This document shows, in pieces, positions 41,901 through 44,900 of a stretch of 64,000 bases of DNA; position 1 is the first letter of the stretch; each line of letters opens with the position of its first letter. The notes beneath the pieces are model-generated. The model saw nothing but the letters and a program-made list of their open reading frames with translations. It made no database searches and was not told the origin of the DNA. This stretch comes from Flaccisagitta enflata (lineage: Eukaryota). Made by a program: the position numbers and the translations under genes. The stretch is taken from NCBI GenBank assembly GCA_965153355.1, contig OZ231126.1:29512001-29576000 (forward strand). Direction: 5' to 3'.

Positions 41901-44900
41901 CAACTTGCGGTCCACAAGATGTTTCGATATCATCTTAGGAGCTCAACAACTGAGAGATTTCAACTTGAGCTGCAACTGCGCATTGTTTGGATGCTTGGAT
42001 TGGGTCGCCCACAACAGTTGTAGAAGCCACAGAGGAATTTGTAGGCACTCCAAAAGAAGTGATAACTGCTGTCTCAAAATCGACCAGATCAGGAGTTACC
42101 CACCCTGTCATCTGTACATAATAAAATGAGACAAAATACATTAGCATTCCTTAACAAATTTACCAAGGTGCGCCTGACCTTTTCACGTAAAGATGCCCTT
42201 GCACTCATCCAAGCCCTTCCATTAACAATAAGCAAACTGGTTTTGAAGAGTCAGCAGATGGTTGAGATTCGGGTGTGGCAGCATTGGGAACTTTGATGTC
42301 TTTTCCGCAACTTCGAATGACAAGTGAATCCAGGGACACATCTCTCCACGATTCCAACGCTTTTTTGCTGATCTTGGGTATCAAGTCGACAAACACATCG
42401 ACGCAGGAGCGAGTTTTGCCATGAATATTGATAACGTGCTCCACTGTATCCTCTGTTGCTGACTCAAAGCTAACTTTGATGACGCTGTGCTCTTTAAGGG
42501 ACCTAATTGTGCCATCTACTAGACTGCGGTTGCAAAGTGTCGTTTCAAATCTAACATAAACATCGAGGTACAACTGCGTTACAGAATCGGGCCTTGATTC
42601 AAACATCTTTGTGAAACAGCTGAGAGAATGCAGGTAGAAAAATGGAAATTGGTCAAAGAATTTGGACATCATTTGCGTCGGCGAAGGATGCTTTGTCCCA
42701 AAGGCTGCCAACATTGCCTTTGGGCACTCATGGCCATGTTGGAAGATGTTCCTGATGATCCGGAGTAAGTCGGCGAAGGAAACCAGATCATAACTGCTTC
42801 CATTGTTGATTGCAAACTCATCTTGTATTTCTCTTGCCAATTTAACATTCCATAATCCTTCACATCCAATGCTCAGGCTTGAATTCCTTCCAACTTCTTC
42901 CAAAACTTTGACATTTTTGCTCTTTTCGCACTTGAGTTGTTTGATGAATGCATTCAATTCTTCAAGGATTGTTTTTTTGGTGAGTTCATTTTGAAAGGAT
43001 GGCGTGAGTAAAGCTTCTTTGGGGGTAAGTCTTTCTTGCAATGCAAGCATCAGCATGTTCATCTCAATGTCCTTGGCATCCAGGAAATCCTTGATTTCCA
43101 GCTGTTGGCTTTGGTTTTTCCACATTTTGACAAAGTATACAAGCAGGGCGGGAGCCTTTGCATGATCAGCAGTTGAGGTTATTGAGACCTGGCCTGAACA
43201 GCTATCCACTGGAGTCGCAGCAACTAGATCAGACCTGATTTTTAGAATCCGTTTTCGATGGAATCTGCTTTCAGTTGATCCCAATGTAAATGTTGTATCT
43301 GAGAGCAGATGTTCAAAAATAGATGCTTTAAAAGATCGACATCATCTAATGAGATCTTGCATAAATTGTACGCTAGATGCAAAATTTCAGGTGTTAGTTA
43401 TTGACCTGAATTCTTGCAACGTCACCGAGGCTGATGTACTCCATATTGACTTTCCTTCATATATATGGAATTGATGGCAAGCTCCTTGACTGGCTGAAAA
43501 ACTGGCTGGAGACAGAGAGTGATGGTAGGAAATGCTATGTCGGAATGGTTGGAGGTGGTCAGCGGAACCACTCAAGGAACGGTGCTTGGCTTTCTGCTGT
43601 TTCTCCTCTACATGAATGACCTTCCAGCTAAATGCAGTCCGGAAGAGGAGTCCTTGATCATGCTTCTGGCTGACGATACAAATAGCTATCAAGAGGTCAA
43701 CAAGAATGTGGCGGAGCATGCAGGGGACCAACAAAAGCTGCAGGACAGGACTGACTGCAGTGCCCAATGGGCTAAGGAATGGAAAATGAAAATCAATGCA
43801 AAGAAGACCAAAGTCATGCACATAATTCTAAGGAGAGTGGTGAAGGGTGCGCAGTAAACCCCAGTAAGAGCTCCTAAGGCTCTTGTCCTTATTCTAGTTT
43901 TTTGGTTGCAATGTATTCATTCATTCATTCATTCATTCTTTTTTTCATTCATTCATTCATTCATTCATTCATTCATTCATTCATTCATTCATTCATTTAT
44001 TCAGCCATTCAGTCATTACTGTTAAAACTAATGATTTTGATTTGATCCAGGCCCAAAAAGCGGTGGTGTCTCAGGCGTTGTTAAGCGGTGGTCCAATGTC
44101 GCGGCATCGGAGGTACAGACGTCAACCTTCTCTTCCAAGACAAAACTCGCTACCGAGTTACTTGGATACGCTCTGTGAGGAGGAAGAGACGCAGGCAGAA
44201 GCAGCAGGTAAGCAATGACAATGGAAGCTTTCATGGTGGCTTTGCCATTGTCAAAGTCAAACATGACCATTGCTTCCGAGACATAACTTTCTGCAGAGTT
44301 ACGTAGATACCTTGGTTAGCAATGGTATTTTCATCTCTTTACTGTGGCATTAAAGGTGCTTATGTCAACAGCCACCTCCGAGACATAAGTAGCAACTGGG
44401 TAAGCATGTGATGTGTGCTACAATTCATCTTACATAAAACTCAAACAATTATCCAAATAAGAAACAGACTTTGAAGAAAAACTGAAAGAATACGGACATT
44501 TATATAGTGAGTTAGGTGAACAGGATATGCAAATAATATTCACCAAAAGAATACCTTTTACCTTTGACCTTTTACCTTCTGAATATCCTTAGATAAGACT
44601 TAATGATGAAGACATCTCTTTAAATGCCACCATTGGCTAATTGGGTATGGACTCCTTAGTCCTTACTTGAAAGTACGTTATCAGAAATAGACCAAGTCTT
44701 AAAATTCTGTTTCAAAAGGTTCCAAAAGTGGTAAGAAGAAGCCTCAATGGGCGAAATCGACGATCGATGAAGAAGACGGATTTCCGGCAGAAATCAAAGA
44801 CGAAATCGGATTCAAAAGCCGAGAATCGCCGCCCAAAATCACCGGCACAATGTCACCGGCAAAAGTTACCGGCAGAATTTCACCAGCTAGAATCACTGGA

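Follow-up and report, generated by a model that had tools for sequence, protein, structure and literature searches.

Introduction

KEN ribonucleases have two well-studied uses, namely in IRE1, which serves the response to endoplasmic reticulum stress, and in RNase L, which serves vertebrate antiviral defence. In both proteins the pairing of KEN domains depends on the kinase domain, and in IRE1 a tyrosine upstream of the arginine-histidine motif plays a catalytic role. According to the available part of a 2023 PNAS study, RNase L proper is found only in jawed vertebrates and PK-RNase homologues are widespread in eukaryotes (PMC10400998). A survey of HEPN proteins, as far as its accessible text goes, lists KEN fused to kinase, ankyrin, CCCH, UBI and BRCT domains, with kinase-less expansions in Oikopleura and monocots, and states that catalysis requires the arginine of the Rx4-6H motif, the polar residue after it and the histidine (PMC3710099); in the accessible text of a Mnemiopsis paper, the only mention is of an RNase L inhibitor domain. 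Here, we analyse a KEN-encoding locus on the minus strand (38568-43458) of a 64,000-nucleotide stretch of Flaccisagitta enflata DNA (contig OZ231126.1; hereafter the window, in whose numbering all positions are given). Judging from its sequence, the locus is best read as covering the 3' two-thirds of a gene belonging to a family that we name sensor-pseudokinase-KEN-UBL proteins (UBL, ubiquitin-like), and we consider it likely that it is a recently inactivated, 5'-truncated copy of such a gene.

Results

The open frame at 42208-43341 (-) spans 378 codons from stop to stop, its terminal stop lying at 42205-42207; a sequence-only reading of the same DNA had found this frame, with a length (359 codons) that we correct here. 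Homology to other proteins covers 349 codons of it (42208-43254), which encode the tail of a kinase C-lobe, the KEN domain, a probable first ubiquitin-like domain and a tail. The KEN domain (42514-42987, residues about 119-276) was delimited by Pfam, a profile search of PDB, Foldseek and VIA-align. The Pfam model Ribonuc_2-5A (PF06479, KEN) matches residues 140-246 with an E-value of 2.3e-9 and 37.9 bits, against a curated cut-off of 23.3, and the RNxxxH motif, described earlier as intact, is present within it as R-N-I-F-Q-H (42736-42753). Beyond the end of this match the 378-codon frame continues for 132 residues, close to the approximately 130 noticed before. A phmmer search with the single open reading frame (ORF) retrieved no IRE1 or RNase L chain from PDB, only chance galectin rows. 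A profile of 23 family sequences (alignment A1) retrieved 22 PDB sequences at E <= 0.01, among them 16 IRE1 kinase-RNase chains (E from about 1e-5 to 2e-3, best 9.5e-6). This profile aligns Y184 and R197-N198-x3-H202 of the window ORF with KYHSS...RNKYHH of yeast Ire1; the family motif LLRxIRNIxQH superposes on yeast Ire1 DLLRALRNKYHH, and the tyrosine 13 residues upstream of the R-N-x3-H motif (42790-42792) is aligned as well. All four active-site residues are intact in the window ORF. It belongs to the KEN branch of the HEPN ribonucleases by its hidden Markov model (HMM) match, its motif and its all-helical fold.

The AlphaFold2 model, built with alignment A1, had a mean predicted local distance difference test score (pLDDT) of 77, with values above 85 across residues 80-350. 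Foldseek gave 35 PDB matches at E <= 0.001 (best E 4e-5), all of them IRE1 among the matches listed. VIA-align re-aligned 959 chains, of which 71 reached Z >= 8; 30 IRE1 entries scored Z 12.5-16.7, 8 RNase L entries scored Z 8.5-11.7, and the next row stood at Z 4.3. The best entry was 6xdb (Z 16.7, root-mean-square deviation 3.2 over 198 residues). Hence, IRE1 is the best structural match of the KEN fold, with Tyr...R-N-x3-H aligned, and the window ORF, which has the same motif as RNase L, is structurally closer to IRE1 than to RNase L. Both the HMM and the structural match by which the sequence-only reading had proposed to check its assignment were thus obtained. Since residues 52-256 of the model superpose on residues 658-963 of human IRE1, the helices preceding KEN (42988-43170, residues about 58-118) are the end of a kinase C-lobe. 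In the ESM Atlas, KEN-bearing clusters appeared at 0.84-0.87 for the window ORF, which we treat as leads only.

A HMMER scan of 1.84 billion representative sequences with the window ORF matched 41 proteins at E <= 1e-3 (32 at <= 1e-10 and 11 at <= 1e-30), and members of the family reach E-values of 1e-30 to 1e-105. The IRE1-type protein P0041, in contrast, ranked only 40th of the 41 (E 7e-5), and its KEN domain scores 130 bits against 38-47 bits for the family. This rank, together with the architecture that the relatives share, places the ORF in a separate family composed of sensor, pseudokinase, KEN and C-terminal domains. The sequence-only reading had already set the locus apart from canonical IRE1 and had suggested kinase-KEN proteins with C-terminal add-ons; both ideas hold, the kinase being degenerate and the add-ons looking ubiquitin-like. 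Twenty of the matches, looked up together with four further relatives (P0054-P0057), all come from ENA, Logan or JGI assemblies; none of these 24 is from NCBI or UniRef, and none bears a name apart from two 'hypothetical protein' labels. In JGI metagenome loci, 119 pattern stretches matched and no relative was among them.

Among 18 relatives scanned, 15 matched the Pfam KEN model, as did 7 of another 8, and the R-N-x3-H motif is kept in 19 of the 20 A1 rows that span it (the exception is P0037). The kinase catalytic loop is far less conserved: HRD and DFG are retained in one of the seven A1 rows spanning them (P0036), the other six having HGN, HGK, HGG, HCK or HLN in place of the former and DFT, DFS, NFS or CFE in place of the latter. 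A kinase or pseudokinase stands next to KEN in P0003, P0011, P0014, P0031 and P0036. In the long relatives P0011 (1457 aa) and P0031 (1393 aa), long leucine-rich repeat (LRR) arrays precede a region that weakly matches Pkinase, and KEN is followed by a long C-terminal extension. P0003 (780 aa) carries the last part of an LRR region, followed by a hydrophobic segment and then by Pkinase and KEN, the whole region being one continuous ORF. Hydropathy analysis of these three proteins gave one strong 19-residue peak, resembling a transmembrane (TM) helix, between the LRR and kinase parts, and P0011 has a signal-like N-terminus. Another branch of the family, comprising P0053 (1599 aa) and P0050 (1087 aa), combines LRR with Roc; P0053, which has two strongly hydrophobic segments (635-653 and 733-751) before KEN, would be a membrane-anchored ROCO-like protein ending in a ribonuclease. 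Neither ankyrin repeats nor an IRE1 lumenal domain was found in the 26 relatives scanned or in the window ORFs. What the family members share appears to be a degenerate kinase followed by KEN and, at the C-terminus, one or two ubiquitin-like domains, to which long forms add a signal-like N-terminus, an LRR ectodomain and a TM helix, or LRR and Roc. For residues 860-1457 of P0011, the ESM Atlas gave IRE1-type and IKK-epsilon/TBK1_ULD clusters at about 0.9, again only as leads.

The first domain after KEN (42295-42489, residues 285-349) is modelled as beta-beta-alpha-beta-beta, with a pLDDT of 84-90 within the whole model and 69 when folded alone. Taken in isolation, it gave no Foldseek match at E <= 0.001 and no Pfam match, and a wide VIA search of 48,161 chains produced a weak best Z of 4.5, with nothing at Z >= 5. 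About 40 of the 50 rows listed, at Z 3.4-4.2, were ubiquitin, SUMO, UBL, UBX or ULD chains, a suggestive, if weak, indication that the domain is probably a ubiquitin-like beta-grasp. Longer relatives have a second C-terminal domain (UBL2), whose family profile matched six RAD23 UBL sequences (E 3e-4 to 1e-2) and which in P0015 scores 20.8 bits with Pfam ubiquitin, below the cut-off of 25.4. With a UBL2 HMM built from eight A1 rows, two ORFs were matched on the minus strand, in collinear order and some 3 kb past the stop of the KEN frame: one at 39116-39054 (HMM positions 5-25, E 0.0019) and the other at 38792-38598 (positions 32-91, E 0.0039). Candidate exon B (38989-39296, -) encodes a linker and the first UBL2 strands and ends at a GTAAGC donor; a putative intron of 201 nt (38788-38988; GTAAGC...AG), whose phases fit both exons, separates it from candidate exon C (38568-38787), which encodes the rest of UBL2 and ends with a stop at 38568-38570. 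When joined, the two exons give 176 codons without an internal stop and match positions 5-90 of the 96 in the UBL2 HMM at E 2.8e-7; the reversed control gave no UBL2 HMM match, and the exons had no Pfam match. An ORF 96% identical to the exon region is present in ENA. Because of these exons, we extend the locus to 38568. They are separated from the KEN frame by a repeat-rich block that resembles a transposable element (TE; 39700-41700, tandem arrays of 8-30 nt), and the candidate donors with at least 6 of 9 consensus positions that could link the KEN frame to them all lie beyond its stop at 42205-42207.

On the 5' side, homology to the family begins at 43458 with a stretch (43396-43458, -) in the same frame as the main ORF, which tblastn and translation relate to residues 356-378 of P0003. 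At frame break 1 (43384-43400) the ORF frame hits a TGA (43384-43386), and homology resumes in another frame right after a TAA (43398-43400). This out-of-frame segment (43254-43382) has 39 of 43 residues identical to residues 1-43 of P0002 and leads to frame break 2 (43250-43258), where residues 44-50 of P0002 are missing and the frame shifts; the protein alignment points to a deletion of about 23 nt. Stops in the main-ORF frame between 43458 and the open frame lie at 43384-43386 and 43342-43344. A 33-nt intron at frame break 1 was considered and rejected on reading the sequence, since the homologous frame would not be restored and conserved residues would be lost. Altogether, P0003 residues 356-772 map to 43458-42265, and tblastn found nothing in the window for residues 1-355.

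Homology ends 5 nt from a reverse-transcriptase fragment of a long interspersed nuclear element (LINE; 43463-43857, +; RVT_1 E 1.2e-9 at 43498-43857) and does not resume on its far side. The repeat boundary was placed at 43463, where contigs from further copies of the repeat part from the window sequence and depth jumps. A retroelement fragment, labelled CR1, had been reported just upstream, and a LINE fragment is indeed there. Seven N-terminal query pieces (tblastn) and the kinase HMM gave nothing better than E 0.1 outside the locus in the 64-kb window, no LRR, TM segment or kinase N-lobe was found anywhere in it, and the 20 kb upstream of the locus contained no N-terminal family homology. 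Nor did any of 194 window ORFs of at least 60 aa (from 350, after removal of 155 low-complexity ones and the ORF itself) match Pkinase in a Pfam scan. Hence, no kinase or pseudokinase directly N-terminal of KEN was encountered in the window beyond the remaining tail of the C-lobe, and this copy appears to have lost its N-lobe along with the TM segment and the sensor. This alters the earlier picture of a kinase eroding at the locus: the domain is missing from the window, and of the seven relatives that span the catalytic loop, six already have a pseudokinase. The patchy upstream remnants, one of them out of frame, were correctly seen, yet they do not look like kinase, because the pieces at 43458-43254 appear to be a family-specific insert and only the in-frame C-lobe helices before KEN are kinase. 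In P0003 and P0004 a unit made of the C-lobe tail and the start of KEN is repeated internally (residues 127-295 and 478-927 of P0004 align to the same window stretch); therefore, the piece upstream of KEN seems to be a duplicated module that has degenerated, and not the debris of a kinase.

Three haplotypes from marine assemblies (P0002, P0043 and P0045), 97% identical, lack the deletion of about 23 nt, and frame break 2 is private to the window haplotype. In all three, the ORF starts where the window has the codon TTG (43382-43380), just after the same TAA, and so frame break 1 is probably common to them. The ENA ORF P0065 reads two window TGA codons as W, which, together with the start at the TTG codon, indicates that the environmental ORFs were called prokaryote-style; P0065, P0002 and P0047 (all ENA ORFs) have TTG or GTG starts written as M, and their N-termini and lengths are not those of eukaryotic gene models. 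In run X1, which holds organism A DNA, Logan contigs reproduce 42526-43492 with no differences and no variant letters, both breaks included; this run very likely holds the reads behind the window and is not an independent confirmation. Run X6, from another individual of organism A, has exclusively variant letters at 14 sites, with one contig that stops fitting at 43256, and run X2 (a marine metagenome) has 13 variant sites; the alternative haplotype occurs in this second individual and in marine samples. Although rare variants are lost from contigs, this pattern speaks for alleles and against a paralogue.

The polymorphic sites number 19, of which 11 are non-synonymous and 8 synonymous (ratio of non-synonymous to synonymous polymorphism, pN/pS, about 0.38); the neutral probability of at most 11 non-synonymous sites is 0.036 without transition bias and 0.19 at kappa 7.5, and the observed ratio of transitions to transversions among variant sites is 15:4. 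Nine residues are private to the window with respect to all three environmental haplotypes, and three of these replacements (E151G, G160C and G273S) hit columns invariant in the 10 other clade sequences. Invariant columns make up 26% of 287, which gives a chance expectation of 2.3 of the 9, and therefore the window haplotype shows no avoidance of conserved sites. These constraint comparisons are underpowered and point both ways. A clean 349-codon frame at 42-55% divergence from the nearest other clusters implies that selection acted on the gene during most of its past and that any decay is recent. In the poly(A) RNA run X11 (organism A), about 12 million reads (6% of the run) included none from the locus, in a sample where the presence of the organism was not shown, and the sequencing runs listed as carrying the locus include no RNA run.

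The locus lies among repeats. The TE-like block at 39700-41700 has a partial inverted copy at about 46200-47000; the pair, which carries internal 8-30 nt tandem arrays and (GTCC)n, shares a 34-nt end that is 97% complementary (41667-41700 and 46806-46839) and brackets the KEN locus together with an SP-rich ORF. The latter (44703-45629, +) is a 309-codon open frame of 27/54-nt and 15/45-nt tandem repeats (SPAKVTGR...) with no Pfam match; its opposite strand is open over 198 codons, and it could be a disordered-protein exon or mere repeat DNA, a choice that bears on the earlier suggestion that the KEN locus is nested in an intron. Directly beyond the LINE fragment, at 43824-44017, comes a short repeat of very high copy number, whose summed contig depth reaches about 600,000 in runs of organism A, and then an array of about 26 (ATTC)n units. 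Further LINE ORFs lie at 19902-21770 (+; RVT_1 E 1.4e-14) and 48939-51611 (+; 891 codons, RVT_1 E 7e-26, weak zf-RVT match), the second belonging to a fairly young retroelement 5 kb from the locus. A RING-finger-like ORF occupies 5611-6222 (+; zf-RING_2 E 2.4e-4, below cut-off), and a long low-complexity stretch at 36359-37329, adjoining (TGGG)n-like repeats, has several frames open on both strands (His/Arg-, Asp/Gly- and Ser/Pro-rich). A STING_LBD match at 10369-10584 (-) was set aside as a chance hit on inspection (E 0.0087 among 149 ORFs, 15.9 bits against a cut-off of 27). Rfam gave no match on the whole window.

Discussion

We regard the locus as a recently inactivated copy, since its homology breaks off 5 nt short of a LINE fragment, its frame is broken twice, in one case only in the window haplotype, and the private replacements hit conserved residues at about the rate of chance. 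The suggestion that this might be a dead member of its family fits well, as the copy looks dead or at least beheaded, given its missing N-terminal half, the breaks and the private replacements. Several observations weigh on the other side. The homologous frame of 349 codons has no stop and its active-site residues are intact, unlike in a long-dead pseudogene; an ATG at residue 73, downstream of both breaks, would permit a KEN-UBL product of 306 residues; the UBL2 exons are open and flank a correct GT-AG intron; three environmental haplotypes keep a frame of 393-399 codons without the deletion; and the pN/pS ratio leans towards constraint. Moreover, the relatives are ORFs called prokaryote-style on environmental contigs, whose ends and single-ORF architectures are only as reliable as these assemblies, and the reliance on analogy alone for the mechanism proposed below counts against our interpretation too. 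We think that the KEN-UBL frame of the window is best explained as still open only because its decay is young.

Most of these observations would fit a living short gene, in which the truncated locus acquired a new promoter and, from the ATG at residue 73, yields a sensor-less protein of C-lobe tail, KEN and UBL, perhaps spliced to UBL2. Such a protein could act as a free ribonuclease, or it could regulate full-length paralogues or serve as a decoy for them. The open frame with its active-site residues, the open UBL2 exons with their phase-matched intron, the pN/pS ratio over 19 sites and the retention of the frame in several environmental haplotypes all favour such a gene, and there is precedent in the kinase-less KEN expansions that the consulted text of the HEPN survey records for Oikopleura and monocots (PMC3710099). 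We nevertheless find this rather unlikely: no donor of sufficient consensus precedes the stop of the KEN frame, which leaves no evident link to the UBL2 exons, the window-private replacements do not avoid invariant residues, and the departure of pN/pS from neutrality is not significant once transition bias is allowed for. In addition, the kinase domain on which KEN pairing in IRE1 and RNase L relies is missing here.

It is very improbable that an intact full-length gene is merely misrepresented, with breaks due to assembly or haplotype-collapse errors and N-terminal exons past the LINE or outside the window. The locus has at least one intron, and its 5' side is repeat-rich, where assemblies fail; against this, the X1 contigs reproduce both breaks (probably from the same reads), the ORFs of the three environmental haplotypes start just past the same upstream stop, the 20 kb upstream are devoid of N-terminal homology, and in P0003, the closest long relative, the whole region is uninterrupted. 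Still less do we favour a decayed copy, such as a retrocopy, of an IRE1 or RNase L orthologue of the host, to which we give hardly any weight. Fold and motif are common to both proteins, but the single ORF finds neither chain in PDB by phmmer, the IRE1-type protein comes almost last among the matches with a KEN score far above those of the family, the family has its own post-KEN domains and no relative scanned has ankyrin repeats or an IRE1 lumenal domain. Furthermore, the locus contains an intron. Hence, a recently inactivated, truncated copy of a sensor-pseudokinase-KEN-UBL gene remains our preferred explanation.

The family to which this copy belongs resembles IRE1 in the type-I membrane logic of its long members, in which an outside or lumenal sensor is followed by one TM helix, a kinase-like domain and KEN. 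It differs in that the sensor is an LRR array or LRR-Roc instead of the IRE1 lumenal domain, HRD and DFG are lost in six of seven rows, and KEN is followed by one or two ubiquitin-like domains, whereas IRE1 ends at KEN; sequence similarity is remote (E 7e-5), and the window copy is devoid of sensor, TM segment and N-lobe. With RNase L, whose pseudokinase-KEN effector is used in antiviral defence, the family shares this pairing of domains and lacks, in the 26 relatives scanned, the ankyrin repeats or any 2-5A-binding part. The KEN-UBI fusions and kinase-less KENs in the part of the HEPN survey available to us (PMC3710099) are similar in having KEN without a working kinase or KEN with a ubiquitin-type domain. 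However, the KENs listed in that part include no LRR-TM or Roc fusion, a distinction by description, and the window copy, unlike the kinase-less KENs described there, is kinase-less by truncation of a longer gene, not by design. The N-terminal LRR ectodomain with a single TM helix, or LRR with Roc, recalls Toll-like receptors and ROCO/LRRK proteins, from which the relatives differ in having no TIR, COR or active kinase output, their output being a ribonuclease. OASL and TBK1/IKK-epsilon, immune effectors with a C-terminal UBL or ULD, appeared among the weak structural matches and feature neighbours. Such resemblances to Toll-like receptors, ROCO, OASL and TBK1 are of architecture, not of descent. 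We found no paper joining KEN, Ribonuc_2-5A or PF06479 with LRR-TM or ROCO, and the supplementary tables of PMC3710099 and PMC10400998 could list such proteins; within the literature searched, a family with receptor-like sensor domains fused to an IRE1/RNase L-type ribonuclease is undescribed.

By analogy with IRE1 and RNase L, we infer a mechanism for the intact relatives. The sensor would drive self-association, whether it is built from LRR and a Roc GTPase or from an LRR ectodomain, extracellular or lumenal, joined to a single TM helix. Upon this association, the pseudokinase-KEN modules would pair back to back and form a composite, metal-independent ribonuclease site. Paired KEN domains would then cut cytosolic RNA, and the ubiquitin-like tails would possibly provide regulation or docking. 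The idea of an immune receptor gains support from the LRR-TM and LRR-Roc sensor parts predicted in the long relatives. An invertebrate animal as host, in line with the sequence-only reading, is plausible given the LINEs, the LRR-TM receptors and the occurrence in marine samples. We therefore put forward, tentatively and with slightly less than even confidence, that the relatives are a new class of 'receptor ribonucleases', in which a Toll-like LRR ectodomain or ROCO-type LRR-Roc is wired to pseudokinase-KEN with ubiquitin-like tails, so that ligand sensing at the membrane leads to RNA cleavage without a cascade; truncated, polymorphic KEN-UBL copies such as that in the window would then arise as by-products of an immune gene family that evolves fast in a marine eukaryote, or would modulate it.

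The window copy serves mainly as a pointer to this family; being polymorphic for an inactivating deletion, it also illustrates how the family turns over by birth and death. If our proposal is true, it would add a third use of the KEN ribonuclease to those known from IRE1 and RNase L, one coupled to sensors of the pathogen-receptor type and to ubiquitin-like tails, and would suggest that a direct 'sense and cut RNA' form of immunity exists outside jawed vertebrates.

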